A stretch of DNA of 64,000 bases from an uncultured Planctomycetia bacterium. GTDB taxonomy: Bacteria; Omnitrophota; Gorgyraeia; CAYWPX01. The stretch is taken from the NCBI GenBank assembly GCA_964460615.1, contig CAYWPX010000005.1:9524-73523 (forward strand), in the 5' to 3' direction. The stretch's first letter is position 1. Every line of letters starts with the position of its first letter. The notes beneath the pieces were generated by a model that had not been told where the DNA came from, did not search any database, and was given only the letters and a program-made list of their open reading frames with translations. Of the stretch, positions 4,557 to 47,853 are shown in pieces. Made by a program: the position numbers and the translations under genes.

Positions 4557-5948
4557 TTATTTCCAATATTCTGGATTTAGTGTAGTAAAATCAAATTTTC
4601 CCATTACTTCGGCTTCAGGGGTCATGGGACCATAGTTGACGGACTTCATGTCGTCAGTTATTGAAATAAGCCGTGGAGCCCTTCGGCTAACACTTATTCC
4701 TATAAGCCCCGCTTCAATAATATCACTGGTTGTACTTTTCGCTATTACGAGCCGGTCTCCATCAATAGCTTCGGGATCAATGGTAACGGTTGCGGTATAC
4801 CCACCCATCTTTTTGGCAAGCGTTAATTCTGTGAAATGATAATCAGGGTTTGTGCCATAGCTTTCCACTGACTTTAGATTAAAATCTTTAATCCAAATAA
4901 AAAGTATATCGGTACATTTTCCGGGAGGAAGGAAAGAATGCCTGTCCATTTCATAGTTGCGTCCGGCCATCATCGAATGTGTGAGACTAAAAGGAGCTTT
5001 TTTATCGAGGATCCTTATAATAATATTATCTAGTTTGCGGTTACCATCATATAAATGCAAAACTTTACCTACCGTGGGATTATTATTGCTCTGGCTATTT
5101 GAAATAAACCAGCTGGGGCATTGCCCGAGAGGCTCGTCATAAGCGCTCAACTCATAACCTTTGGCAAAAATACGGTAATAGCCTTGATTTATTATATTAA
5201 TAGTAAAATACCCACCGCCATCTGTCAAAGCTGAATAGGTATGACCATTTCTGATATTTACCGCGAATACCATGGATTTTTTTTGTGAGTTGGATGTTTC
5301 GACTTTACCAGAGATCGTATGAACAGTTTCAGGAGCCCACATGCCACGTAAATCCGCTCGATCCTGTTCGCTAAAGGCAAGGAATTCGTCATCGCTCCAT
5401 GCCTTAGTACCGCAGAGCATTATGGCAGAAGTCGAAGCAGCATGCTCAAGACCCAATGCATGCCCTATCTCATGGATCATAGTATTGTAGGACATTGCAT
5501 AATAACCGTATTCGGTATTTAAAATTACTAAACCTTTTTGATAATCATGGGGGATAGCGCCTGAGTAACTTCCTCCGCCAGAAACCGATTTCCCAGGAAC
5601 AGTTGCCCCTGCCAGCACAACATAGATACAACCATCATTAGGAACTTCACTGATATTACCGTAATTGAAATTTTCAAGACCCTTGAAGACAAACTTTAGC
5701 CCTGTCTCAGGCACCGAACCCCATAATTCAAAAGCCTTTTTTATTTTTTCTACAACAGGTTCGGGCGTGGAAATATTTTTATTTTGTCTTTTATCAAATA
5801 GATTCGAGGATATCTTGTAGTTAATTATCCTAGCGGATTTTGATTGGCCGGAAGGTTTATCGGCATAGGAAGTTACATCTATCAAAAAAAGAAACATTAA
5901 ACTTAAAAGAAAAGCAGTATACCTACTGATCGCATAATCTGATCTCAT
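4557..5948 (-). CDS. Secreted metzincin-type zinc metalloprotease
   Basis: Extended zinc-binding motif HEIGHALGLEH (HExxHxxGxxH) with a downstream Met-turn candidate. N-terminal signal/TM. C-terminal beta-rich region. Confidence 0.7.
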   Translation of the reverse strand: MRSDYAISRYTAFLLSLMFLFLIDVTSYADKPSGQSKSARIINYKISSNLFDKRQNKNISTPEPVVEKIKKAFELWGSVPETGLKFVFKGLENFNYGNISEVPNDGCIYVVLAGATVPGKSVSGGGSYSGAIPHDYQKGLVILNTEYGYYAMSYNTMIHEIGHALGLEHAASTSAIMLCGTKAWSDDEFLAFSEQDRADLRGMWAPETVHTISGKVETSNSQKKSMVFAVNIRNGHTYSALTDGGGYFTINIINQGYYRIFAKGYELSAYDEPLGQCPSWFISNSQSNNNPTVGKVLHLYDGNRKLDNIIIRILDKKAPFSLTHSMMAGRNYEMDRHSFLPPGKCTDILFIWIKDFNLKSVESYGTNPDYHFTELTLAKKMGGYTATVTIDPEAIDGDRLVIAKSTTSDIIEAGLIGISVSRRAPRLISITDDMKSVNYGPMTPEAEVMGKFDFTTLNPEYWK

Positions 5949-6192
5949 AATGCCTCATTGTAATAAAGATTTTCCTTTAACTTATAGAGCAATGAATATA
6001 GTAATATTATAACTAATTTCTTCTTTAAATGCAATAGATGGTATTAAACCATATTTCTAATATCATACATAATATCAATGATCATTTTTTTCTTAAAACG
6101 CATTTTGATTAAATGTGAAATTTCATAGAATAAGGATACCCTATATGCTATAATGAGCTTTATTATCAAAACATCAAGAAAGCAAGTAAAAT

Positions 6193-6648
6193 ATGGTTAA
6201 ATGTTATATATGCGGTCTTGAATATGAAGAAAACCAGGGGGTATCATGCCCGCGTTGCGAGGCAAAACCGTCTGGTTTTAACATGTCAGATCTGTTCAAT
6301 CCAAAAAAAACATCTAAAGATAAACAAAGAAACGCTCTTGTCACAGCTGGCCGCCTTTTAAAAAGAGATATGTATATAGATGGAATAGGTTTTATAAGCG
6401 GTCTTATATTTTTCGGGCTATCAACTTTTGCTGAAATGTTCGCTTTATTAGGGACTGTTTCTTTATACATATGGTTTTTCTGGAGATTATTTGTTGTAAT
6501 AAGGATACGCTACCTTTTGATATTTATGGATAAAAAGAGGGGAACAGTATTTTTCTCTCAATTGCTTGCGTTACTTCTGCCGTTTGGCGAAATATTAATC
6601 GGGATAGATACATTATTCCAATTAAAAGATATGCTAAAAAAAGCCTAG
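6193..6648 (+). CDS. Zinc-ribbon membrane protein
   Basis: N-terminal CxxC...CxxC (CYICGLEYEENQGVSCPRC) then two TM helices. Extended -10 (TGCTATAAT) upstream. Confidence 0.5.
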   Translation: MVKCYICGLEYEENQGVSCPRCEAKPSGFNMSDLFNPKKTSKDKQRNALVTAGRLLKRDMYIDGIGFISGLIFFGLSTFAEMFALLGTVSLYIWFFWRLFVVIRIRYLLIFMDKKRGTVFFSQLLALLLPFGEILIGIDTLFQLKDMLKKA

Positions 6649-6649
6649 A

Positions 6650-6827
6650 TCAGTGGTTATGAGTTATGAGTTGGGAGTAAGAGATTGCTCAAGGGTCTAG
6701 GGGATAGGGTCTAGGGAAGAGAAAAAACGCTTCAGGTTACAAGCTTTTCCTCAGTTTAAACTTCGGGCTACGCAGGTTACAAGAAGAAGGTGTAGAAGAA
6801 CACAAGAACACATGTCACAGGTAAATA
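6650..6827. repeat. Mosaic intergenic repeat, composite part: (GTTATGA)x2, (GGGTCTAGG)x2, GCTTCAGGTTACAAG, CACAAGAACACATGTCACAGG modules
   Basis: Short tandem heptamer/nonamer iterations. Modules shared with the family-A and family-B copies elsewhere. Confidence 0.6.
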
Positions 6828-6946
6828 AGCTCATAGCTCATGGCTCATAGAAAAAGATAAGAGAAGCTTCAGGCCGCAAGCCACAGGCTACAGGTAAAAG
6901 ATTGAACCAAAAACGCCGTACCCCGTACGCCGTACTAAAAAAATAG
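6828..6946. repeat. Intergenic repeat family A, copy 1: (AGCTCAT)x3 - GCTTCAGGCCGCAAG - (CCACAGG,CTACAGG) - (CCGTACN)x3
   Basis: ~90% identical to 16946-17067. Clear 7-nt periodicity. Confidence 0.8.
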
Positions 6947-6976
6947 CTTATACAAAAATAAAAAGAAAGGCAGAAT

Positions 6977-9418
6977 ATGAACATACGAATATTAAAAGAA
7001 AAAAAATCGATTTTTAAGGTTTTAAGTTTAGTTGTTATTTTTTCATTTACACTGATAGTTAAACCGCTTTTAGCCGAAGATGCGGCCACGAACACGGCTT
7101 CTACAAGCAATGACTCTGCAACATCTGCCCCGACTATTGATAAAATAATCGAGACCACGACTTCAACGGAAGACACCGAATATTTACGCTCAGTTTTAAA
7201 AGAAACTTTTGATTCTTTATTATATTACAGGCACCCGGTTACAGGACTGTATTCCCAGAATCCTCAGAGCAACAAGGAGATGTCCAAGTGCGACCATATA
7301 GGTATGGTCTTTGGTTGTATTGCTATCGGCGGTAAAATAGGGCTTATCAGTGACGAAGAAGCTAAGCGCGAACTTGGTAAAGCACTGAGTTCTTTAGAAA
7401 AAGTCCCTACTGCTTCAGGGTTTCCCGCTGAACCGATAAAAGCTTCCGATCCTACAATAGGCTCTTCGGGTTGGGTAGCAGTGGCGGATATGGGGTGGTA
7501 TCCCTGCGGACTGATTGTTGCAGGAGAGGCGTATCCTGAATTTAAGCCACGAATTATGAAACTAATAAACGCTATGGACTGGACCAAGATGTACAACGCC
7601 GAAAAAGGATTCCTAAAAGGCATCTATGCCGTACAAAACGGGGTTTTAAAGGCTGAGGGACTTGATCTCTTGATCGCAAGCGACCAGCGTATGGCGATTT
7701 TTATTTCCATAGCCTCAGGAAAAGTCCCCGCATCAGTATGGGATAGAATGCCGCGCAATTACCTTACCAGATACGGCGAAAAATATTTAAAGCCAGGCGA
7801 AGGCCTCGGCTATGGGGAACAACCCTGGGATATGGGATATTATATAGATGAACGAGGTTCGGAAGTAGGCATGTCCAATGCTAACTTAGCCTGGGTGCAA
7901 ATGCATTACGCTTTGGATATGTGGTATCCGACTTGGGGATGGTCAAACTGTCTTACTCTTGAAAGATATATGGGTTTTGGCGATCCAGATACGTCCTGGT
8001 CATCGATAAATGCCCATGCAATAGCGCCGGCAGTAGTATTTTACCCAAACCAGGTAGTAAAAGCGCTAAAAAAACTGGAAGAACTTGGGAATAGAGAACC
8101 GGTCAGGCCTGATGGAATTACACTAAAAAAATTCGGCTTCAGAGCATCGTATGATGTGGATAAGAAAAAATCTCCTGAGGCGGTTCTTGCGGGCCTGGAC
8201 CAGCCGATGATATTTATGTCACTGGCAAATTACTTATACGACGGAATAATTTGGAAGCTTTTCAAACAAAACGAGATGGTAAGTAACGGCCTAAAATTAA
8301 TTAAGGAATATTCTAACCCCAATGCTGATTACATCAAACTTTATAAATCACGTGATACTAAAGGCCCGTCTATTGAATATAACCCGAAAGAACCCGGAAA
8401 GAAAATTATTGTAGTAGACGATTTTACAAAAAACGGCAACATAAATTCTCTTGGCGCCAATAGAGAACCGACTCTTTGCAGGCTGAACTCAACCAATGGC
8501 ATCGGAGCTCTTGAATTTATTGGAATCGGAAGCAGCCGCGGTTGGTTTATTGAAAAACTTAATGGAGTTAATCTGGTCCATCACCGGCTTCTTAAGCTAT
8601 CTATAAAAGGCAAAACTGAAGGCAAGGTCAAATTATCCCTGCGTATCGGAGGTACGGGAGGGTACAGGATGTTACCTATCACGACCGAGTGGACTGAGTA
8701 TTTGATACCCCTACGCAGTATGCTAGGCGGAACCGGGTACGACTATTCAAAAGAAAATCCTGAATTTCCATGGACAGCTATGTGGTACAACAGGTTTTCC
8801 GGTGAAGAGATCAGGATAGACCAGTTAGAAATGCCTTCTTTTGAACTTAAAGAAATATCCTTTATTGCCGCCACACCCGAAGAGATAGATATAGCCGCAG
8901 CAGCACTTGTTGCCGTCAAACCTACGGTGATAGAGCCTGACGGGACTTTTGACAGAATGGAAAAAATAGCTCTATGGTATGCGATCAGATCAGGACATAA
9001 CTCAAAGGCCGAAATATCTTCTTTGCCGGGCGTAGAAGGTAAAGGTATAGCCCTTAATTTCCAATTTCTGGAAACAGGCGCTGATAACTGGGCTTTAATC
9101 GGCAGAAAAGTCGCTTTTGAATTCCCGGAAAAAATGGATCTGGTTTTCAACATGAAGGTTACCGGAGGCCCGGCAGACCTGGAAGTAAAATTTGTTGATA
9201 ATAGCGGTGCTAACTACAGGATCACTCTGCCGAATAAAATTGTAAGTTCTGATTGGCAGATTGTAAGAGTGCCTATAGATACTATCCCTTACGGATGGGG
9301 CGGCATAGCAAAACCAAGAATTACTGATGCAGTTGAACTTCATTTTGCGGCAGTCTCAAAGTCAATGGTAAGCGGGACTGTTATCTTTGATAATTTGAAA
9401 ATTGAGAAGTCGAAGTAA
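6977..9418 (+). CDS. Large secreted protein (813 aa). Central region possibly an (alpha/alpha)6 glycoside-hydrolase-like (DUF3131/GH144-like) domain, with a C-terminal beta-sandwich CBM-like domain
   Basis: Signal peptide, Thr/Ser-rich linker, Trp/Tyr/Asp-rich central domain, C-terminal beta-rich domain. The family assignment is by recall only. Confidence 0.35.
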   Translation: MNIRILKEKKSIFKVLSLVVIFSFTLIVKPLLAEDAATNTASTSNDSATSAPTIDKIIETTTSTEDTEYLRSVLKETFDSLLYYRHPVTGLYSQNPQSNKEMSKCDHIGMVFGCIAIGGKIGLISDEEAKRELGKALSSLEKVPTASGFPAEPIKASDPTIGSSGWVAVADMGWYPCGLIVAGEAYPEFKPRIMKLINAMDWTKMYNAEKGFLKGIYAVQNGVLKAEGLDLLIASDQRMAIFISIASGKVPASVWDRMPRNYLTRYGEKYLKPGEGLGYGEQPWDMGYYIDERGSEVGMSNANLAWVQMHYALDMWYPTWGWSNCLTLERYMGFGDPDTSWSSINAHAIAPAVVFYPNQVVKALKKLEELGNREPVRPDGITLKKFGFRASYDVDKKKSPEAVLAGLDQPMIFMSLANYLYDGIIWKLFKQNEMVSNGLKLIKEYSNPNADYIKLYKSRDTKGPSIEYNPKEPGKKIIVVDDFTKNGNINSLGANREPTLCRLNSTNGIGALEFIGIGSSRGWFIEKLNGVNLVHHRLLKLSIKGKTEGKVKLSLRIGGTGGYRMLPITTEWTEYLIPLRSMLGGTGYDYSKENPEFPWTAMWYNRFSGEEIRIDQLEMPSFELKEISFIAATPEEIDIAAAALVAVKPTVIEPDGTFDRMEKIALWYAIRSGHNSKAEISSLPGVEGKGIALNFQFLETGADNWALIGRKVAFEFPEKMDLVFNMKVTGGPADLEVKFVDNSGANYRITLPNKIVSSDWQIVRVPIDTIPYGWGGIAKPRITDAVELHFAAVSKSMVSGTVIFDNLKIEKSK

Positions 9419-9448
9419 GAAATAGTTCATAGACATTGGAGCGCCAAG

Positions 9449-9582
9449 ACACAACGTCACAAGTTTAAAGAAGAAGAATTTGCTTGTGCTCTTGTGTCAT
9501 TGTGCTCATGTGTCAATAAATGCTGGTAACTGGTGCTCTGGCGATTGGTGCACTGGTAACAGCAATACCGGTACCCTGATGA
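9449..9582. repeat. Intergenic repeat family B, diverged copy 3
   Basis: Shares GTCACAAGTTTAAAG...GCTTGTGCTCTTGTG...ACAGCAATACCGGTACCCTG with the copies at 10984 and 13153. Confidence 0.6.
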
Positions 9583-9750
9583 CTTGCGTAGCCCCGAGGT
9601 TTCAACCAAAGGATAGCTGGTTCACTTTTTACGCTGAATGCTGATGACTAAAAACTTCCACCACAAACCGTTGGCGGGCGGGCATAGCTGATAGTTGGGG
9701 GTTCTAACTAAATAACATTTCCTATATTATTTATACAACAGGAGAAAGAA

Positions 9751-10968
9751 ATGAATATGAAAAATAAATTTATTGGAAATATAGTATTTGTCTTTTTATC
9801 AGTTCTTATAATTTTTATTTGCTCTGGATGTGCTACTTTGAGACATCCGGTCCCATCTAATATGATCGGCAAGGCTCATGTAGATAATATGTCGGATATA
9901 CGGACATTCTACGGTGATAGGGGTTCCGAACTGGCGAAGAATGCATTGCTGTCTTTCAAGGAAGAAAATATAACTGATTACCCTGTAAACTCCGATGGTA
10001 AGCGCGTCTATCCGCTGCTCTGCATATCCGGGGGCTCGGCAAATGGAGCATATGGGGCAGGATTATTAAATGGATGGTCAAAAGAAGGCTCAAGGCCCAA
10101 ATTTAAAGCCATTACCGGGGTATCCACCGGAGCTATAATAGCTCCTCTTGTATTCCTCGGCGAAGAATACGACGATATGGTAGAAAATCTTTATACAACT
10201 ATGGCGACAAAACAAGTAATGACTCTAAAAGGCCCTCTTAGGGCTCTCTTCGGAAATTCCCTTGCAAGCAACAAACCCTTAGAAAAACAGCTCGATAAAT
10301 ACATCACTGACGACATATTAAAAAAGATCGCAGATGAACATAAGCGCGGCCGAAGGCTATATGTGGGCACAACATACCTGGACGCGCAAAGATTTGTAAT
10401 ATGGGACATGGGCGCAATTGCCTTAAGAGGCGATGCGAAATTATTCCGAAAAGTTATTTTGGCTTCTGCTGCAATACCAATGGTATTCCCGCCTGTATTT
10501 ATTAAAGTGGAGGATAAAGGCAAAATATACGATGAGATGCACGTAGATGGCGGAACATTGATGCAGGCTTTCTCACTCTACAAAATATTTGAAGGGGAGG
10601 AAGAGAACGCCAAAAAAATGGGTATTGATCCGGAAAAGATAAAAGCAGATTACTACATTATAAGAAACGGATATTTTGACCCAAGCTATAAAGTCGTTGA
10701 TGATGAATTGGCTTCAATAGGAGGGCAAACGTTCGATACAATGATAAATTCTCAGGGCATTGGCGATGCTTACAGAATATATGCATTCATGCAACGAAGA
10801 GGCAATACTTATAACCTAGCGTTTATACCCGGAGATTTCAGGCCTCCCAAAAAAGAGGAATTTGACCCAAGCCAGATGAAAATGCTTTTTGATAAGGGAT
10901 ATGAGGACGCTGTTAACGGATATAAATGGAGCAATGTTCCGCCGGGGTTGGATATCAATAGGGAATAG
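9751..10968 (+). CDS. Patatin-like phospholipase lipoprotein
   Basis: Lipobox ICSGC, oxyanion-hole GGSANGAYGAG, nucleophile motif GVSTG (GxSxG), and a DGG Asp dyad motif further downstream. Confidence 0.75.
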   Translation: MNMKNKFIGNIVFVFLSVLIIFICSGCATLRHPVPSNMIGKAHVDNMSDIRTFYGDRGSELAKNALLSFKEENITDYPVNSDGKRVYPLLCISGGSANGAYGAGLLNGWSKEGSRPKFKAITGVSTGAIIAPLVFLGEEYDDMVENLYTTMATKQVMTLKGPLRALFGNSLASNKPLEKQLDKYITDDILKKIADEHKRGRRLYVGTTYLDAQRFVIWDMGAIALRGDAKLFRKVILASAAIPMVFPPVFIKVEDKGKIYDEMHVDGGTLMQAFSLYKIFEGEEENAKKMGIDPEKIKADYYIIRNGYFDPSYKVVDDELASIGGQTFDTMINSQGIGDAYRIYAFMQRRGNTYNLAFIPGDFRPPKKEEFDPSQMKMLFDKGYEDAVNGYKWSNVPPGLDINRE

Positions 10969-37641: not shown

Positions 37642-39594
37642 ATGCAAATATTCAAATATTTTCAGGATAAGGCATATATAATCAATCAGCTGCCAATTTT
37701 TTCTGATTTAAGCGATGATGAGAAGAAAATGGTAGCTGAATTATGCCAATTTTCTGAATATAAAAAAAATGAACTTATTTATAAGCAATCAAGCCCGCCT
37801 GACAAATTCTATCTCATTATAACCGGAAGGGTCGAGGTTTTCTCTTTTTCGAAAAACGGAAAAGAGGAACCTCTTGAATATTTAAGAAGAGGACAATTTT
37901 TCGGTATTATTTCACTCTTAATAGGCGAACCGCATTCTGTAAGCGCAAAGGCAATAAATGATTCTGTAATACTGACGATAGAAAAAGATAATTTTGATCT
38001 TATCCTTAAAAAAATACCCGGACTTTCTTTCTATTTCAGCCAATACTTATCAAGAAGATTAAAAAGAAAAGACCTTCATCCGAAATCTGTTTTTGAAAGC
38101 ACTATAATTGCGGTCTTTTCGCAAGATAGGCTTACCGGCAAAACTCTCTATTCGGTGAACCTGGCTCTCAGCCTTATCAAAGAATCCAACAAAAAGGTCA
38201 TCCTTGTCGATATGAGCCCTCAGGGGAATAAGATCTTTTCTATGCTCGGAGAACCCGCTCCTAAAGCCATAAATTTAAACAACAGCTTCTTTGATGAAAA
38301 AGCCATTAAAGAAAACCGAATATATCATAAGCTGGGAATCGATATATTAGGAATAGAATACTCTGAGCTTAAAAGCGAAGAGTCTTTTAAGATAGGGGCT
38401 CTCTTAAGCCTTTTGACAAACGAGTACCACTATATCATTCTTGATCTGCCCCATATTATCGATTCTACAATCTCAAAAACATTAGCACAATCTGATCTTA
38501 TACATATCATTACTGTTGCCGAAGAAGAATACCTCAAAAAAACCAATTCTATTATTAAAGAATTCAAAGAAAACCTGAAATCAAAAAGTGAGGATATCAA
38601 GGTAATAGTAAATGAATACGAACTTAAAAAATCTTTACCGCATTCAAAAAGGGCCGAAATACTTGGGCATCAGATTTACGCGACTCTCCCTGATATAGAG
38701 CTTCATCTTAGCTTCGACAAAGAAAAAATTGTTTTAGACTACCCGGAATCATCTTACGCAAAAGCTATTCGACGCATAGCCAGAGACATAAGCCATGTTT
38801 TGATCGGATTGGCACTGGGTTGCGGCGGAGCCATGGGATTAGCTGACATAGGAATACTAAAAGTCTTTGAAAGGGAAAAGATCCCCATTGATATGATCTC
38901 CGGGACAAGCATAGGAGCTATAATTGCGGGTTTCTGGGCGGCCGGATTCAATTCAAAAGACTTGGAGAACATATTTAGAAAACAGACCGGAAAATTTTCT
39001 ATGTTTGGGTTGATCGATCTTGTTTACCCTAAAAGCGGTTTCATAAAAGGCAAAAAAATTGAAAATTTTCTTAAAAAATACCTGGGTACCAAAACCTTTT
39101 ACGATACAAAATTGCCTCTCAAGATCATCGCTTGTGATTTAGTGAACCGCCAGGAAGTTGTACTAGACAAGGGAAGCCTCACTAGCGCAATACGCGCCAG
39201 CATAGCAATCCCGGGAGTAATACAACCTCTGGAGCTGGATGGAAGAATACTTGTTGACGGAGGGATCGTAAATCCGGTGCCGACAGATGTCCTGATCCAG
39301 TCAGGAGCCAGTAAGATAATATCCGTCAATTCACTTCCTGGTCCTGTAGCTAGTAAAAATCTCAGAAAAATTCGTTTTAAAGCGGGAATTTTTGACACGA
39401 TTGTGATCAGTATCCAGGCAACTGAATTCATTATAGGGGAAAGAAGTTGCGAAGATTCCGATATAGCTCTTAGGCCAATCCTTGATGAAGTTGAATGGTT
39501 TGAATTTAGCGAGATCGATAGGCTTATAAAACTTGGCGAAGAGACCGCAGAACAATTCCTTCCTCAAATTAGGCAGTTAAGCTTGGACCAATAA
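37642..39594 (+). CDS. Three-domain protein: N-terminal cyclic-nucleotide-binding (CAP-type) domain, middle degenerate ParA/MinD-like domain, C-terminal patatin-like phospholipase (NTE/RssA-like)
   Basis: cNMP domain (GRVEVFSF...RRGQFFGIISLL...SAKAIND). Middle region has a degenerate Walker-A-like segment SQDRLTGKTLYSVNLALSL. Patatin motifs GCGGAMGLADIG (oxyanion), GTSIG (GxSxG) and DGG. Confidence 0.7.
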   Translation: MQIFKYFQDKAYIINQLPIFSDLSDDEKKMVAELCQFSEYKKNELIYKQSSPPDKFYLIITGRVEVFSFSKNGKEEPLEYLRRGQFFGIISLLIGEPHSVSAKAINDSVILTIEKDNFDLILKKIPGLSFYFSQYLSRRLKRKDLHPKSVFESTIIAVFSQDRLTGKTLYSVNLALSLIKESNKKVILVDMSPQGNKIFSMLGEPAPKAINLNNSFFDEKAIKENRIYHKLGIDILGIEYSELKSEESFKIGALLSLLTNEYHYIILDLPHIIDSTISKTLAQSDLIHIITVAEEEYLKKTNSIIKEFKENLKSKSEDIKVIVNEYELKKSLPHSKRAEILGHQIYATLPDIELHLSFDKEKIVLDYPESSYAKAIRRIARDISHVLIGLALGCGGAMGLADIGILKVFEREKIPIDMISGTSIGAIIAGFWAAGFNSKDLENIFRKQTGKFSMFGLIDLVYPKSGFIKGKKIENFLKKYLGTKTFYDTKLPLKIIACDLVNRQEVVLDKGSLTSAIRASIAIPGVIQPLELDGRILVDGGIVNPVPTDVLIQSGASKIISVNSLPGPVASKNLRKIRFKAGIFDTIVISIQATEFIIGERSCEDSDIALRPILDEVEWFEFSEIDRLIKLGEETAEQFLPQIRQLSLDQ

Positions 39595-39685: not shown

Positions 39686-40186
39686 ATGATGATATTATTT
39701 ATAGAATTATTGGTTATTCTGGTTTTAATGCTCATCTGGTTTTCGGTGAGTAGGGAGGAATCCCAAAAAATCAAAGATTCAATCTCCAAGGCTACTCTCA
39801 GGGAAATATGGGAAGGTACTGAAAGAAGGAGGTCTTTCAGATTGCCCGTATCTTTAGAAGTGCGGTATGTTATCGAGAAAAAAATACAAGCCAGTTTAAA
39901 AAGCAGGAGTAAAAATATTTCATCCGGCGGGATAATGCTTGAAGCTGAAGAGAAAATTTATCCGGGCACTCCGCTTAAATTAGAGATCATTCTGCTGGAT
40001 AATAAACCCCCTATCCAGACTGAAGCAGAGGTTATTTGGGTAGATGAAGCTAATGAATCCGATAATATCGAAAAAAGACACTTTAATATCGGAGCAAAGT
40101 TTATTTATTTAAATAATGCCAGCCTTAAACGCATAGATGAGTATGTAAAACAAAAAAGGGAAGATTCCAATGAAAGAGAGACGTAA
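39686..40186 (+). CDS. Membrane-anchored PilZ-domain protein
   Basis: TM helix, then RRSFRLPVSLEV (RxxxR) and NISSGGI (DxSxxG-like). Confidence 0.65.
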   Translation: MMILFIELLVILVLMLIWFSVSREESQKIKDSISKATLREIWEGTERRRSFRLPVSLEVRYVIEKKIQASLKSRSKNISSGGIMLEAEEKIYPGTPLKLEIILLDNKPPIQTEAEVIWVDEANESDNIEKRHFNIGAKFIYLNNASLKRIDEYVKQKREDSNERET

Positions 40187-40712
40187 ATTTAAACGTTTAG
40201 CCGTAGAAATACCCATTCAGTTGGAACCGGTTTTAAACAAAAAACAAGCTTCAACCACTGCGTATCTATTCAATTCAAAAAATATTGCTGAAGCGGGAAT
40301 GTTCCTTCATACTCCTATTAAATATAAAAAAAATCAGGCACTCGATTTTCTCATTAAACTTAGGAATGATTCTAACCCAATTCATCTGATAGGAAAAATT
40401 GTCTGGATAGCCAATAAAAAGGACCACCCATATCTCTATCCGGGAATTGGCATTAAATTCTCATTGATCAATGAGAATGATAAAAAAAGATTAAAAAAGT
40501 TCTTAAAGAGCCGCTTAGCCAGCTACAAAGATGCCAGAGAAATGAAGGATATGTACCTAAAACTAAAGAAAATGGCCGCAAGGCTTATTTCTTTGGAGGA
40601 AAAACATCCCACCGCATCTCAGTTTAAAATAATTATCGATAAGGCGATTTCGGAGATCGACAATGCCGCTCACACAATAGACAGAGAAATTATGGAGATC
40701 AAGAAGCTCTAA
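40170..40712 (+). CDS. PilZ-domain protein with C-terminal helical extension
   Basis: RRKFKRLAVEIP and NIAEAGM motifs. 17-nt overlap with the upstream gene. Confidence 0.65.
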   Translation: MKERRKFKRLAVEIPIQLEPVLNKKQASTTAYLFNSKNIAEAGMFLHTPIKYKKNQALDFLIKLRNDSNPIHLIGKIVWIANKKDHPYLYPGIGIKFSLINENDKKRLKKFLKSRLASYKDAREMKDMYLKLKKMAARLISLEEKHPTASQFKIIIDKAISEIDNAAHTIDREIMEIKKL

Positions 40713-40726
40713 AGGCTTTATAATAA

Positions 40727-41245
40727 ATGGGTACTATCAAAAAACCTCTTCCGGTTAAACTTATTGCTGGGCTTATCTACCATGATGAATCATTCCTAGA
40801 GTTGTCCAAAAAATTTCTTGTAAAAAAATTTGGACAGATTGATTTCGAAAGCGAAACCCTAAATTTTAATTATACAGATTATTACTCAAAAGAGATGGGT
40901 AATAATTTGCTAAGAAAATTTATTAGCTTCAAAAAACTTCTTATTCCCGAAGATTTTGATAGAATAAAGCTTTATACAAATAAAATTGAATCAAGACTAT
41001 CATGCAATGATAAGAGGCAGATCAATATTGATCCAGGATATCTGAATGACGCAAAACTCGTGCTATTGACCACTAAAGACTATTCGCATAGGATCTATCT
41101 TGGCCGCGGCATATATGCCGAAACAACTCTTGTTTACAAAAAAGGGAACTTTGAAGGCTATGATTGGACATATCCTGATTACAAAAAAGATTATATCAAT
41201 ATATTCACGGACATAAGAAAGATATTTTTATCACAAATACATTAA
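40727..41245 (+). CDS. DUF4416-like protein
   Basis: Pattern KKPLPVKLIAGLIY...INIDPGYL...LVLLTTKDYSHRIYLGRGIYAE recalls DUF4416. Assignment by recall only. Confidence 0.4.
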   Translation: MGTIKKPLPVKLIAGLIYHDESFLELSKKFLVKKFGQIDFESETLNFNYTDYYSKEMGNNLLRKFISFKKLLIPEDFDRIKLYTNKIESRLSCNDKRQINIDPGYLNDAKLVLLTTKDYSHRIYLGRGIYAETTLVYKKGNFEGYDWTYPDYKKDYINIFTDIRKIFLSQIH

Positions 41246-41246
41246 A

Positions 41247-41852
41247 ATGGGAAAAATTTTAAAGAAAAAAAGTATTATTGTTATAACCGTATCTTCAATA
41301 ACGCTCTCGATAGTGATCCTCTCGACTTTTGCGGGATTTTTTCTGTATGCAACTTGGAAAGAGAACGAGGGCGAAGAGTTGTATTTGGAAAAATTAGGCT
41401 CAGTATTGGCGCAAACATATTATAATAAGATTGTCATTACTGATTTAGAGGCAAAAATAAGCAAAACATACCCATATAAAGAAAAACCTGTTCTGAAGGG
41501 ATCCATTGAAAATTTGGGGAACTCTACTATTAAACATCTGGTCATAAAAGTCTACTTTCTTGATTTTAGAAATGACTCAATATATGATGTCGAATTTGAG
41601 CCGTTAAAATATATTTCAAAAAAAGAAGGTGTGGTTACTCCGTTTATTGAGATGCTTATCAGGGAAGACGAGGTCCCGTTGGGGGAAAACGAAAAGGCTG
41701 AATTTACTTATAGTCTGGAAAACTGCCCCCCGGAAATCGGCAAAATGATTGAAAACAACCAACTAAAACCTACTTTTGTCAAACACAGAATAAACAAGGA
41801 TTCGTGGTCAGGTAAATTGAAAACCAAGATATTAAGGATGAGATTTTTTTAA
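41247..41852 (+). CDS. Membrane-anchored hypothetical protein
   Basis: N-terminal TM helix. Soluble ~170-aa domain of unknown function. Tightly coupled to its neighbours. Confidence 0.4.
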   Translation: MGKILKKKSIIVITVSSITLSIVILSTFAGFFLYATWKENEGEELYLEKLGSVLAQTYYNKIVITDLEAKISKTYPYKEKPVLKGSIENLGNSTIKHLVIKVYFLDFRNDSIYDVEFEPLKYISKKEGVVTPFIEMLIREDEVPLGENEKAEFTYSLENCPPEIGKMIENNQLKPTFVKHRINKDSWSGKLKTKILRMRFF

Positions 41853-43522
41853 TGAAAAGAATTGCTTTTGTATTAATTACAGTCGCGAGCTTAATCGTTC
41901 TCATTTTCTTTGCCTCTTTTTATTTTGTAGATAGAGAGAAACGAAAAGTTTATTATTATAATATCTATAAAGATAATAACTTGATGGGCCATATTAAGCT
42001 TGAAAGATTCATTACTGAAGATAAAATTATTTATATCTCAACAAAAACTTTAGAATTCGAGCCATACCAAAAAAAAGTCAAATCAAAGCTTGTTATAGAT
42101 AAGTTTTCCCATGAATTCGAAGATTTTAGCGAAGAAGAAATTGAACTTGGAGCAAAAAAATTTTTAACACTGCAAAACAAAAAAAATAGAATAAGTTTTT
42201 TAAGCTCTGAAGATTCTGAATTTACTTATCTTGAAAATCATGAGATCACCAAGAAAATTAGCTTATTTAAAAAAGACAGCATCATAACTTTCCCTGAAAT
42301 TATAAAAAAGTTCAATCCTGAAAGAGGGCTTACTGCCGAGATAAATTGCTTAAACCAATTCTCCGGAACTTATCCTCCTATAGAAAAAATGTTCAGGATT
42401 TCGTTATCCAAAAATGAGATCTTCCGATATAACAATGCCAATGTAAGGACTAATCATCTTATTTTTCATCTTTACAACGATGAAGACATATCCGTATGGA
42501 CTTATGGCTGGCTTAACACTATCATATCCATTGAGATACCTAAAGAAGGCATCAAAATAAACCTGACTCGTAAACCCAGGCTTGACGAAGGCGTGGCTTA
42601 TAAAATAGAAAATAAAACCTACAATGAAACTGAAATAAAATTCAAAAATGGGAATATTGCCCTATATGGGTCGCTGACTACCACGAGAGACCCTAATAAG
42701 GTCCCTGCCGTGATACTGATAGCCGACAGAGGGATAATGGACAGGAACGGAAAAGGTTTATTTCTGACTTTGGCCGATTCCCTTTCAAAAAAAGGCATAA
42801 CAGTCCTTAGATACGATAAGCGTGGCGTCGGAAAAAGTGAGGGCGACTACTCGGCCACAAGTCTAAAAAATAGCCTGGGGGATATCAAGGCAGCTATAGA
42901 TTACTTATATACAATGGAATATATCGATCGGGACAAGATCGGTATAATCGGATGGGGATATGGCGGATACCTCGGGCTCAAATATGCTTCAAGCGATGAT
43001 AGGGTAAAATTTATGATATCCCTTAATAGCGAAGCATTTAATAGAACTAGCGACGAGAACTTTGAAAAACTTCAAAATTTTCTTGAAAATAAAATGGGCG
43101 ATATCAAAAGCTATTTTAATACTATAATAGACTCCTACAAACAAACCTTTGCTATTGCCAGATCTGATAAAGATTGGGCCAATCTAATAGGCAAAAAGGT
43201 TTATTTGGTCAGAACAAGGGAAAATCTTGAAAACAATTTTGACGAAAATTTGAAAAATCTTAATATCCCTGTTTTGATTCTGCATGGCAGGGAAGATACC
43301 GTCGTACCCGTTGAAGAGGCCGATATTTTACATAACAAGATCAGATCTTCCAACAGTATATTATGCGAACTCAAGCTATTTCATAAACTCGGACACAACC
43401 TAGGCGATTACCTATATGACGGACATCATCGTAAATATATTATCGTAAACCAAGAAGTTGTAGGCACAATAACGAATTATATTAATAAAATATCTGTTGA
43501 GGAATACAATACTCAAAAATAA
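41852..43522 (+). CDS. Membrane-anchored S9-like alpha/beta hydrolase-fold protein with the catalytic Ser replaced by Gly (probable pseudo-enzyme)
   Basis: C-terminal domain has the peptidase S9 nucleophile-elbow context GWGYGGY in place of GWSYGGY. Asp (REDTVV) and His (HKLGHN) positions are retained. N-terminal TM plus a ~300-aa unknown domain. Confidence 0.55.
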   Translation: MKRIAFVLITVASLIVLIFFASFYFVDREKRKVYYYNIYKDNNLMGHIKLERFITEDKIIYISTKTLEFEPYQKKVKSKLVIDKFSHEFEDFSEEEIELGAKKFLTLQNKKNRISFLSSEDSEFTYLENHEITKKISLFKKDSIITFPEIIKKFNPERGLTAEINCLNQFSGTYPPIEKMFRISLSKNEIFRYNNANVRTNHLIFHLYNDEDISVWTYGWLNTIISIEIPKEGIKINLTRKPRLDEGVAYKIENKTYNETEIKFKNGNIALYGSLTTTRDPNKVPAVILIADRGIMDRNGKGLFLTLADSLSKKGITVLRYDKRGVGKSEGDYSATSLKNSLGDIKAAIDYLYTMEYIDRDKIGIIGWGYGGYLGLKYASSDDRVKFMISLNSEAFNRTSDENFEKLQNFLENKMGDIKSYFNTIIDSYKQTFAIARSDKDWANLIGKKVYLVRTRENLENNFDENLKNLNIPVLILHGREDTVVPVEEADILHNKIRSSNSILCELKLFHKLGHNLGDYLYDGHHRKYIIVNQEVVGTITNYINKISVEEYNTQK

Positions 43523-43591: not shown

Positions 43592-44101
43592 ATGAGTTTT
43601 GAATTATTAGGGTATTATTTAGTTTTTTGCAGTATTGTAATATTCGGTCTGGCAGTCTACTTTGTAATTATTAAATTTAAAAGGTTAACTGAAGACATTA
43701 ACCTGTATGGTAATCTTGCAGGAAATAGTTTTAAAAACCCTGATAAAAAAATTTTTAAAGAACGGCGTGTTTTTGAAAGATTAGGAATAGAGTTAGATGC
43801 TATCTTAAATATCCCGGAACAGAAAAATGTCTTTGAAGCTCAAACAAAAGACATAAGTTCGAGAGGGGTAGGGGTAAAATCTAGGATTTTCTTTCCTGAA
43901 AAAACTCATGTCGAAATAAACCTTATATTATCAAAAACCGACCAATTCGTAACCAAGGGAATGGTTGTTTGGTCTAAGGAAAATTATGATGGAATAAGTA
44001 ACCTTGGGATTAAATTTGATAATTTACTAACGAATGAAATGATCAGAGTTTATAAATACTTTGATGAACTAAAAAATTCAAATTCTAAATTAATAGGTTA
44101 A
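43592..44101 (+). CDS. Membrane-anchored PilZ-domain protein
   Basis: TM helix, then RRVFERLGIELD and DISSRGVGV motifs. Confidence 0.65.
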   Translation: MSFELLGYYLVFCSIVIFGLAVYFVIIKFKRLTEDINLYGNLAGNSFKNPDKKIFKERRVFERLGIELDAILNIPEQKNVFEAQTKDISSRGVGVKSRIFFPEKTHVEINLILSKTDQFVTKGMVVWSKENYDGISNLGIKFDNLLTNEMIRVYKYFDELKNSNSKLIG

Positions 44102-44117: not shown

Positions 44118-44489
44118 ATGGTCAGACTCCCTGATGAAAAAAGAAGATATATTAGATTAGAAATGCCTATAAAGATTATTTATAATGCAAAAAATGACAA
44201 TCAAATGAAAGAATCTTTCTCTAAAGACATATCTGCTGAGGGTCTTAGGTTCATAGCAAGCAGCCCGATTAACCCTGGAGCCGAAATCGAGCTTAAAATT
44301 TCATTGCCTGATGCCACTAACCCGGTTCACATACAAGGCAAGACCGTTTGGTGCAGCAAAACAAATCAAGGCGATGAAATCTATGAAGTAGGAGTTGAGT
44401 TTGTAAAAATTGAGGAAGATAATAAAAATACTTTTTTAAAGTTTCTATGTGACACAATGTATAAACAAGCAAAAAAACTATCAGCTTAA
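44118..44489 (+). CDS. PilZ-domain protein
   Basis: RRYIRLEMPIKI and DISAEGLRF motifs. Confidence 0.65.
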   Translation: MVRLPDEKRRYIRLEMPIKIIYNAKNDNQMKESFSKDISAEGLRFIASSPINPGAEIELKISLPDATNPVHIQGKTVWCSKTNQGDEIYEVGVEFVKIEEDNKNTFLKFLCDTMYKQAKKLSA

Positions 44490-44503: not shown

Positions 44504-44878
44504 ATGAAGAGATATTCGATTACCCAGATATTATTGATAATTACTTTTTTGTTTATATGCGGCTGTGCCAACAATCAAACATTTAATATCGCAGGTATTG
44601 AACCCTTGCAAATACCTAAAGATGTGGGAGACAACCCTCTGGGAACCACCGCTTTAAGGATTGGCATGACAAAGGATGAGGTCAAATCACTATGGGGACA
44701 ACCGGATTTTATTAACCCAATACCATCAACAGATGACGCATCCGGATCGATAAAAGAAGAATGGGTTTACAGGGCTAAGAAATATTCGCCAATCCCTGTT
44801 GATGTAGAATACTTATCTAACAACAAGCATCTGTTCTTTGATGGCCCTAATTTAACAAAAATAGCTGAGGATAAGTAA
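44504..44878 (+). CDS. Hypothetical lipoprotein
   Basis: Lipobox FICGCA. No domain recognised. Confidence 0.4.
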   Translation: MKRYSITQILLIITFLFICGCANNQTFNIAGIEPLQIPKDVGDNPLGTTALRIGMTKDEVKSLWGQPDFINPIPSTDDASGSIKEEWVYRAKKYSPIPVDVEYLSNNKHLFFDGPNLTKIAEDK

Positions 44879-46165: not shown

Positions 46166-46203
46166 GCCATCTAAATCTTAACAAGATTTAGATGGCTTTT
46201 TTT
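46166..46203 (+). terminator. Rho-independent terminator
   Basis: Perfect hairpin GCCATCTAAATCTT-aaca-AGATTTAGATGGC followed by TTTTTTT. Confidence 0.7.
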
Positions 46204-47059: not shown

Positions 47060-47109
47060 AAAAAAGAGCCATATTGTGCTATGGATATATACATTATGGC
47101 TCTTTTTTT
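47060..47109 (+). terminator. Rho-independent terminator
   Basis: AAAAAAGAGCCAT...ATGGCTCTTTTTTT hairpin. It lies inside the 5' part of track ORF 47074, so I moved that gene's start to 47122. Confidence 0.55.
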
Positions 47110-47121
47110 AGGCTAAAACAA

Positions 47122-47853
47122 ATGAACTTAAATGTCAGGGAAATAGGAAGAATAAGTATTATTGATATTGAAGGCCAGATAGATATCAACTCTTCTGAAT
47201 TAGTTGAAACTGTAGGCTGGTTAGTTAAAAATGATAAGGTCAGCATTATATGTAACCTTGAAAAAGTTGAATTAGTTGATTACAGCGGGTTATCGATTTT
47301 TGCAATAATTTTCAAGAATGTATCAAACCATGGCGGGCACTTAAAATTCTGCAATGTTCCTCTCCATATTTTAGAGCTTTTTAGGGTGGTCCAATTAGAC
47401 TCGATATTTACCTTTTATAACAGCGAAGATGCTGCTATCAAAAGCTTTATAATACCCTCAGAAATTGATAAAGCCACCCTTAGAAGGCGTTTCCAAAGGG
47501 CTTATGTTCAGATAAATGTAAAATACAGGATAATAAGCAATAACTCCGAAACCAGCTATTCCCACCCGGGCAAGATACTTAATATAGGCGGCGAAGGAAT
47601 GTATATTTATACCCAGGAAATTTTTCCTATAGGAACCAGACTTGAACTCGAAGTGGATTTAGGCCCTCACAATAAACCTGCTATTATAAATGGTTTTGTT
47701 GTTTGGATCGCCGATAAAGAGATCCAACCGCACTCCTATCCAGGGATGGGGGTCCAATTTGCTAAATTAAACGACAATATACAAAAAAATATTATTGATT
47801 TCATAAACAAACATGTTACCCATAGAAGCGGACTTTACGACAATTTGTTATAA
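47122..47853 (+). CDS. STAS (anti-sigma-factor antagonist-like) domain fused to a C-terminal PilZ domain
   Basis: N-terminal SpoIIAA-like STAS pattern (ISIIDIEGQIDINSS...VELVDYSGLSIFAIIFKN...LKFCNVPLHILELFRVVQLDSIF). C-terminal RRRFQRAYVQIN and NIGGEGMYI PilZ motifs. Confidence 0.55.
   Translation: MNLNVREIGRISIIDIEGQIDINSSELVETVGWLVKNDKVSIICNLEKVELVDYSGLSIFAIIFKNVSNHGGHLKFCNVPLHILELFRVVQLDSIFTFYNSEDAAIKSFIIPSEIDKATLRRRFQRAYVQINVKYRIISNNSETSYSHPGKILNIGGEGMYIYTQEIFPIGTRLELEVDLGPHNKPAIINGFVVWIADKEIQPHSYPGMGVQFAKLNDNIQKNIIDFINKHVTHRSGLYDNLL

Follow-up and report, generated by a model that had tools for sequence, protein, structure and literature searches.

Catalytically dead proteins that adopt the alpha/beta-hydrolase fold are well known in animals, where DPP6, DPP10 and the neuroligins are examples, and in plants; in the neuroligins, the replacement is of Ser by Gly. 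To our knowledge, such proteins have rarely been documented as conserved bacterial families. The subject here is a gene at 41852..43522 of a 64,000-nucleotide stretch of contig CAYWPX010000005.1 (the whole stretch analysed, hereafter the window; all features given below lie on its plus strand), which encodes a two-domain pseudo-hydrolase of 556 amino acids (aa) with Gly in the place of the catalytic Ser. The product is probably a selected, non-catalytic envelope protein that works by binding, in a clade in which the fold has been kept and the catalytic triad abandoned many times. Pseudo-enzymes of this fold are already known; the novelty lies in the architecture, in the genes around it and in a triad lost repeatedly and in parallel.

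The closest functional analogue of the window protein is DPP10, the likeness being functional and architectural and not one of family membership. DPP10 and DPP6 are S9B non-peptidases that serve as auxiliary subunits of Kv4 channels and, like the window protein, are single-pass proteins with a beta-rich domain ahead of an alpha/beta-hydrolase domain. DPP10 carries Gly for the catalytic Ser in an otherwise intact nucleophile elbow (GWSYGG to GKGYGG) with His and Asp kept, and the protein is a non-catalytic channel subunit (PMC4350108); the window protein, with GWGYGG, carries Gly at the same site. The fly orthologue of DPP10 still has peptidase activity according to PMC4873792, which parallels the mix of triad-intact and triad-deficient orthologues described below. 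DPP10 differs in having an eight-bladed propeller where the window protein has a barrel-like N-terminal domain, and the window protein is bacterial, distant in sequence (E-values of 1e-4 to 1e-5 to DPP4 and DPP8) and without a known channel partner. The neuroligins and related cholinesterase-like adhesion molecules use non-catalytic alpha/beta-hydrolase domains for protein-protein binding at the membrane, and PMC5943944 describes neuroligins as non-enzymatic members of the fold; they differ from the window protein as eukaryotic members of the type-B carboxylesterase subfamily with a C-terminal anchor, so that kinship is by fold only.

Nucleophile elbow and catalytic triad

The gene is an open reading frame (ORF) with an ATG start, recognised by Pfam and modelled with AlphaFold2 (AF2), and an identical protein, P0001, is present in a public collection. 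Its nucleophile elbow, GWGYGGY (aa 367-373, 42950..42970), is encoded by GGA TGG GGA TAT GGC GGA TAC, of which the third codon (42956..42958) specifies Gly369. Alignments by phmmer place Gly369 opposite the Ser of G-x-S-x-G-G in the solved esterases 9pjb, 8b4u, 9w30 and 7wwh, and in the AF2 model (pLDDT 79.8) residue 369 lies between strand 358-368 and helix 370-381, the site of the nucleophile elbow. The same column holds Ser in 44, Gly in 5 and Asp in 1 of the 50 matches from the first database search. The triad acid is kept as Asp482 (GAT, 43295..43297, in GREDTVVP) and the base as His515 (CAC, 43394..43396, in KLGHNLG), each in a column where 48 of these 50 homologues have the same residue, the His column being Ser in the 50%-identity orthologue. 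Compared with an active serine hydrolase, the acid and His are present and the nucleophile is missing; inspection of the elbow found no alternative nucleophile Ser, Cys or Asp. An earlier note, made from the window sequence, had placed the elbow at these positions, read its Ser as replaced by Gly and its downstream Asp and His contexts as retained, and all of this is borne out by the sequence and structure alignments. As Gly369 leaves the hydrolase domain, whose fold is kept, without a nucleophile, it cannot carry out serine-hydrolase chemistry.

The closest and only close orthologue, P0002, is 50% identical and shows identical gene order across ~17 kb in independent Logan assemblies; its elbow reads GWGYGA, and Glu and Ser stand in for the triad Asp and His. 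A more distant member (P0003/P0051, 28% identity) has SHGEGA and Arg at the His position, and is encoded behind genes for two PilZ proteins, a DUF4416 protein and a ~200-aa protein. Gly at the nucleophile position is thus shared with a syntenic orthologue at 50% identity and with a member at 28%. A word-indexed protein search gave only two full-length relatives of the window protein, but a tiny family was rejected by an exhaustive HMMER search with a four-sequence profile, in which ~120 representatives of the two-domain family (transmembrane (TM) anchor, barrel-like domain and cap-bearing hydrolase domain) were found.

These representatives, clustered at 50% identity, were placed in a rough neighbour-joining (NJ) tree built with the triad columns excluded, which splits the family into an outgroup clade of 46 and a cassette clade of 77. 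The window protein falls under the definition of the latter by its architecture and by the position of its gene, directly behind those for DUF4416 and a DUF2393-like TM protein and with PilZ genes on either side. Outgroup members keep Ser in 44/46, Asp in 45/46 and His in 46/46, with all three together in 44/46; the three members sampled for context adjoin radical SAM/PqqD/bPH_5 genes, an MFS transporter or unrelated genes, and neither PilZ nor DUF4416 is found beside them. The full triad is present in 23 of the 77 cassette-clade representatives. Their nucleophile column holds Ser in 29, Gly in 19, Ala in 9, Lys, Arg or Glu in 13 and other residues in 7; Asp is kept in 61/77 and His in 35/77, and all three residues are lost in 15/77. 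Fitch parsimony on the NJ tree gives minima of 18 changes for the nucleophile, 15 for Asp and 15 for His, pointing to at least about 15 independent changes in the cassette clade, a number that is approximate because the tree is a rough one drawn from 50%-identity representatives. Loss of Ser correlates with loss of His (2x2 counts 23/6/12/36, Fisher p = 4.5e-6, in a test that treats members as independent, without phylogenetic correction), which is what is expected if catalysis was given up as a whole.

Two further patterns were seen at this position. In a sub-clade of ~600-aa members, the former nucleophile position is occupied by Lys, Arg or Glu, in a largely conserved G-[HYF]-[KRE]-G-G-G-Y elbow; the sub-clade comprises P0129 (for which no Pfam match is on record), P0132, P0135, P0137, P0146, P0147, P0153, P0154, P0160, P0165 and P0171, and the proteins encoded at 8012-9949 of locus L068 and 8090-9859 of locus L074. 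The charged residue looks more like the mark of a remodelled site than of simple decay. Gly at the nucleophile with Asp and His kept (GHGEGA, GYGEGA) was also found in P0015 and P0046, which lie outside the two-domain family, in P0196 of the outgroup clade and, at the margin of the cassette clade, in P0158 and P0183; replacement of Ser by Gly is thus recurrent in this part of the superfamily.

Some alpha/beta-fold enzymes, such as the cofactor-independent dioxygenases, work without a Ser nucleophile, and the window protein could be an enzyme of this kind, for instance one in which a His-Asp dyad acts as general base on water or substrate. Asp482 and His515 are kept in conserved contexts, so that non-serine chemistry is possible for this protein; the fold, including the cap, is predicted to be intact, and His is kept in 12 of the 48 cassette-clade members that lack Ser. 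Such an enzyme is nevertheless considered unlikely, as the only close orthologue, in identical context, has Glu and Ser for Asp and His, the other 36 of the 48 non-Ser members have lost His as well, some members have none of the three residues, and the elbow offers no other nucleophile.

Architecture and esterase ancestry

The N-terminal TM helix (aa 2-30, 41855..41941) is present as a helix in the AF2 model and reaches a hydropathy maximum of 2.8 in a 19-residue window, in agreement with the membrane anchor described for this 556-aa protein in the earlier note. Across the clade, the N-terminal flank of the helix is a short MKK or MKR with a charge of +1.7 and essentially no acidic residues, and the 15 residues on its C-terminal side have a net charge of ~0; this favours an N-in signal anchor, which would place the bulk of the protein outside the cytoplasm. 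The anchor is followed by an all-beta N-terminal domain (aa 31-240, 41942..42571) that is predicted to form a closed beta-barrel-like fold and has no Pfam family; no credible Pfam match was obtained even at E<=10, the sole listed match, NusG_II, being at chance level (E 0.16). In structure it is likened to the closed, barrel-like DUF1849-like (6ntr) and DUF1089/PA1994 (2h1t) proteins and, more distantly, to LolA-like lipid carriers, with a sequence identity to the 6ntr- and 2h1t-type barrels of just 7-12%. From the class of fold, the barrel domain may bind lipid.

The alpha/beta-hydrolase domain (aa 257-548, 42620..43495), with a helical cap at ~aa 400-470, is supported by Pfam, phmmer against the PDB and Foldseek. 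Its membership of the superfamily is clear, with eleven Pfam alpha/beta-hydrolase families matching at E<1e-3 and a Foldseek probability of 1.00 to many esterases. Over ~aa 280-520, the best Pfam match is Hydrolase_4 (S33, PF12146; 59.3 bits, 4.6e-16), followed by Peptidase_S9 (PF00326; 50.6 bits, 2.3e-13, cut-off 22.6) and then by Abhydrolase_1, DLH and others. The best matches by both sequence and fold are EstD-like/Hydrolase_4 (S33-type) cap-bearing carboxylesterases, namely PET46 (8b4u), the MHETase MHT043-5 (9pjb), TTL lipase (7q4h) and feruloyl and cinnamoyl esterases: phmmer gives 5e-21 for 9pjb and 6e-17 for 8b4u, and Foldseek retrieves PET46 (6e-18), TTL lipase and feruloyl esterases with TM-scores to the target of 0.77-0.83. 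EstD itself (NF041096) is the best NCBIfam profile, matched over positions 130-419 of 421, at 87.7 bits against an equivalog cut-off of 600 bits, which is well short of equivalence. The EstD-like esterases and the window protein share a D-x-R-G-x-G-x-S-x-G loop and a G-x-[S]-x-G-G elbow; the former are active with a Ser nucleophile, whereas the window protein has Gly together with an additional TM anchor and a barrel-like N-terminal domain.

The earlier note had described the protein as S9-type, and a true member of peptidase family S9, in effect a bacterial non-peptidase homologue of the DPP6/DPP10 type, would fit the Peptidase_S9 score, which is well above cut-off, and an elbow that is one residue away from the DPP4 motif GWSYGG, with Gly at the place where DPP10 also has it (PMC4350108). 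This is very unlikely. Hydrolase_4 scores higher, and DPP4 and DPP8 are matched only at the level given above, far from that of the small esterases. Comparison of the model with known structures found a barrel-like N-terminal domain and no beta-propeller, and GWGYGG departs from the GxSxGG in which S9 enzymes carry their catalytic Ser. The likeness to the DPP4 motif looks convergent, because active relatives of the window protein carry GHSEGG and the DPP4-like Trp and Tyr beside the Gly occur in no members but the window protein and P0002. S9 is thus an imprecise label: the profile match is real, but Hydrolase_4 outscores it, the best solved relatives are small cap-bearing carboxylesterases of the Hydrolase_4/EstD type, and no propeller is present.

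Conserved gene context and selection

A scan of genome contigs with the single window protein found nothing. A second scan used the DUF4416 alignment as a marker against contigs from one genome per species, and the 80 best loci were taken; these include many Candidatus Omnitrophota metagenome-assembled genomes (MAGs), for example Ca. Omnitrophus magneticus. In the top dozen loci, DUF4416 is 50-59% identical to that of the window and the genomes are mostly Omnitrophota-labelled MAGs, with a few labelled Planctomycetales, Chloroflexota or 'bacterium'; cassette-clade examples from named genomes are also mostly labelled Omnitrophota. By these DUF4416 identities, an Omnitrophota origin is the most likely one for the window. 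PilZ lies immediately upstream of DUF4416 in 29/80 loci. The hydrolase is found in 6 of the 22 PilZ-DUF4416 loci with enough downstream sequence, and in 0/51 DUF4416 loci without PilZ (Chloroflexota, Poribacteria, Desulfobacterota and others). Most of the PilZ-DUF4416 loci that lack it have a ~320-aa protein directly after DUF4416, which is a radical SAM protein in 5/5 tested, and at L009, the one tested locus with a longer protein in this position, it is an M48 peptidase. In part of the phylum, a PilZ-PilZ-DUF4416 locus has thus received the genes of the TM protein and the hydrolase together, as if they were a single two-gene insert.

The window gene order recurs in the related loci L001, L004, L006, L021, L027, L045, L053, L064, L068, L071, L074 and L092. 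At cassette loci, PilZ genes are found upstream and usually downstream too, and the hydrolase follows directly downstream of DUF4416 whatever its triad state, with a single-pass membrane protein of ~190-200 aa, related to the product of 41247..41852 in the window, between the two except at L052. These states, given in the order nucleophile/acid/base, are Ser/Asp/His in L006 (P0052), L045 and L071; Gly/Asp/His in L021 and L027; Ser/Asp/Arg and Ser/Asp/Gly in L052 and L053; Glu/Asp/Ala and Arg/Asp/Ala in L068 and L074; and Lys/Asp/Glu in L092 (P0129).

Evidence of purifying selection comes from L021 and L027, which both carry Gly and are 85.5% identical in protein sequence: nonsynonymous (dN) and synonymous (dS) substitution rates are 0.071 and 0.656, a ratio of ~0.11, although this is from one pair only, one member of which (L027) contains an in-frame TGA. 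Between the window and L001, pN is 0.32 and pS 0.83, with synonymous sites saturated, and the L003 and L004 DNA sequences are identical, so that no ratio could be obtained. The TGA of L027 lies at codon 130 of 5923-7641, where L021 has GGC (Gly); the other detected ORFs of L027 are intact, and it most likely arose by point mutation or through a sequencing error. The positions that are both specific to the clade and most strongly conserved fall outside the active site, within the juxtamembrane segment and the N-terminal domain: F23 is conserved in 97% of the cassette clade, Y36 in 95%, T55 in 96%, Y61 in 96%, Y154 in 94%, Q162 in 95% and P175/P176 in about 90%, and the same positions are conserved to 13-65% in the outgroup clade. 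The window protein itself has F23, Y36, T55, E56, Y61, F124, F139 and P175-P176. In these alignments, selection has moved from catalysis towards the N-terminal domain. A triad lost repeatedly, purifying selection and near-invariant barrel residues together imply that the selected function needs no hydrolysis. The non-catalytic half of the pseudo-enzyme proposal in the earlier note is thus supported, by Gly-bearing orthologues and by clade-wide decay of the triad under purifying selection, whereas a binding or scaffold role is what we infer.

Neutral decay, in which the family would consist of functionless relics of an esterase no longer needed, could account for triad columns that are poorly conserved, for hydrolase domains that Pfam fails to recognise in some members, and for the in-frame stop of L027. 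It is, however, highly improbable given intact ORFs of ~550 aa in roughly 75 divergent representatives, the low dN/dS of the Gly-bearing pair, clade-specific residues conserved at about 87-97% and a translational coupling to the partner gene that is itself conserved. An origin of Gly369 in faulty sequencing or assembly, or in a very recent mutation of this lineage in an otherwise active enzyme, is effectively refuted: the exact protein is on a single contig in the public collection, but GGA is two substitutions away from all six Ser codons, so that a single miscalled base cannot account for it, the GWGYG of the independently assembled orthologue P0002 uses GGT, and Gly is encoded by GGC in more distant cassette members.

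Several observations weigh against a selected, non-catalytic role in the envelope, and to the retained Asp482 and His515 and the limits given above with the tree, the Fisher test and the dN/dS pair, three are to be added. The window protein deviates at several of the conserved barrel positions, for example with Ala for Q162 and Glu for P68. Its own TM flanks are ambiguous in charge (the C-terminal flank is DREKRK), making a cytoplasmic orientation possible. Lastly, 16 of the 22 PilZ-DUF4416 loci are without the hydrolase, and the neighbourhood may partly reflect lineage-wide synteny in Omnitrophota and not function.

Neighbouring genes and a possible c-di-GMP link

Directly upstream of the hydrolase gene, at 41247..41852, lies the gene for a 201-aa single-pass membrane protein with a weak match to DUF2393 (Pfam 1.7e-4, below cut-off), joined to the hydrolase gene by a TAATG stop/start overlap. 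A homologue of this protein is encoded directly upstream of the hydrolase in 11/12 informative related loci and was never seen without it; at L092, the position is occupied by an unannotated 193-aa gene. From its arrangement, it appears to be an obligate upstream gene partner that is translationally coupled to the hydrolase, and its N-terminal flank, KILKKK, suggests an N-in orientation. The DUF4416 protein (172 aa, 40727..41245, Pfam 6.9e-59) is the conserved locus marker and is 50-63% identical in related loci. No sequence relatives of DUF4416 or the TM partner were found in the PDB, and a literature search found no paper mentioning DUF4416 and no description of the two-domain hydrolase family.

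Four PilZ proteins flank these genes. The first (39686..40186, Pfam PilZ 5.6e-16) has an N-terminal TM helix and the motifs RRSFR and NISSGG, and is overlapped by the second (40170..40712, 2.9e-12), in which RKFKR is accompanied by a variant second motif, NIAEAG. Downstream of the hydrolase are a third, again with an N-terminal TM helix (43592..44101, 1.8e-11; RVFER, DISSRG), and a fourth (44118..44489, 8.3e-16; RRYIR, DISAEG). As read from the translations, the RxxxR and (D/N)xSxxG motifs of PilZ receptors are both intact in three of the four (39686, 43592 and 44118), and binding of cyclic di-GMP (c-di-GMP) is predicted for these neighbours. The run continues through a small lipoprotein-like gene (44504..44878; Pfam BamE 6.5e-3, below cut-off), a conserved downstream neighbour with a same-position gene in L001 and L092, after which come a gene for a small TM protein and the def gene before the run meets a terminator-like hairpin (46166-46196). 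This hairpin, a 14-bp perfect stem followed by a T-run, is the only strong site of its kind in 37-46.5 kb and closes a co-directional run that begins at or before 39686; promoter and terminator scans were otherwise uninformative. The tightly overlapping run with two PilZ proteins, a DUF4416-like protein and a membrane protein that the earlier note had described is confirmed as co-directional and overlapping, but its extent was understated, as there are four PilZ genes, the run is longer, and the hydrolase forms a conserved pair with the upstream membrane protein.

Searched with Rfam at its gathering thresholds, the whole window yielded no match, so no c-di-GMP riboswitch is present by this measure. 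A known anti-phage defence system was considered and rejected, as none of the cassette proteins (hydrolase, TM partner, DUF4416 and the four PilZ proteins) was matched by PADLOC. Immediately upstream of this run of PilZ genes, at 37642-39594, a 650-aa fusion combines a cyclic-nucleotide-binding domain, a ParA/MinD-like P-loop domain (AAA_31) and a patatin phospholipase; it has weak PADLOC matches to CBASS/Pycsar-type, generic effector profiles, and is conserved in L001 but missing at L004 and L092, which are more distant cassette loci. A STAS-PilZ fusion is encoded 3.5 kb downstream (47074-47853), and genes for c-di-GMP receptors are unusually frequent in this region. This accords with a preprint on giant genes of Omnitrophota, which notes an abundance of pilZ in the phylum and does not mention the cassette (10.1101/2023.11.21.568195).

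Taken together, a mechanism can be proposed in which the product is an inner-membrane-anchored, two-domain envelope protein, with a TM helix, a barrel-like domain and a hydrolase domain derived from EstD/feruloyl-esterase-like carboxylesterases. The barrel, alone or with the vestigial esterase pocket under the cap, would bind either a ligand, hydrophobic or acyl, or another protein at the periplasmic side of the membrane, and the protein would be a subunit alongside the membrane protein that is co-translated with it. Topology, binding role and the partnership with the TM protein are what we infer, as is the link to c-di-GMP signalling; the latter is plausible from the gene neighbourhood, with four flanking PilZ proteins, motifs intact in three and two with a TM helix of their own. 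A more far-reaching version is speculative and rather improbable: the clade would be a bacterial counterpart of DPP6/DPP10, an esterase turned, repeatedly and in parallel, into a periplasmic ligand- or lipid-sensing receptor that, with its membrane partner, couples an envelope signal to cytoplasmic PilZ/c-di-GMP effectors and DUF4416 in Omnitrophota, and in the Lys/Arg/Glu sub-clade the former active site would have been rebuilt as a new binding site.

For annotation, genes of this family should not be called peptidases or esterases. The cassette is also a natural experiment, as within one gene arrangement orthologues range from the full Ser/Asp/His triad to none of it with the N-terminal barrel conserved, a pattern that pinpoints the part of the protein bearing the selected function and that yields matched active-looking and dead-looking pairs for experiments. 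Omnitrophota is a phylum known almost entirely from metagenomes, and in it the cassette links PilZ receptors and two uncharacterised families, DUF4416 and a DUF2393-like membrane protein, to an envelope module that is open to testing.

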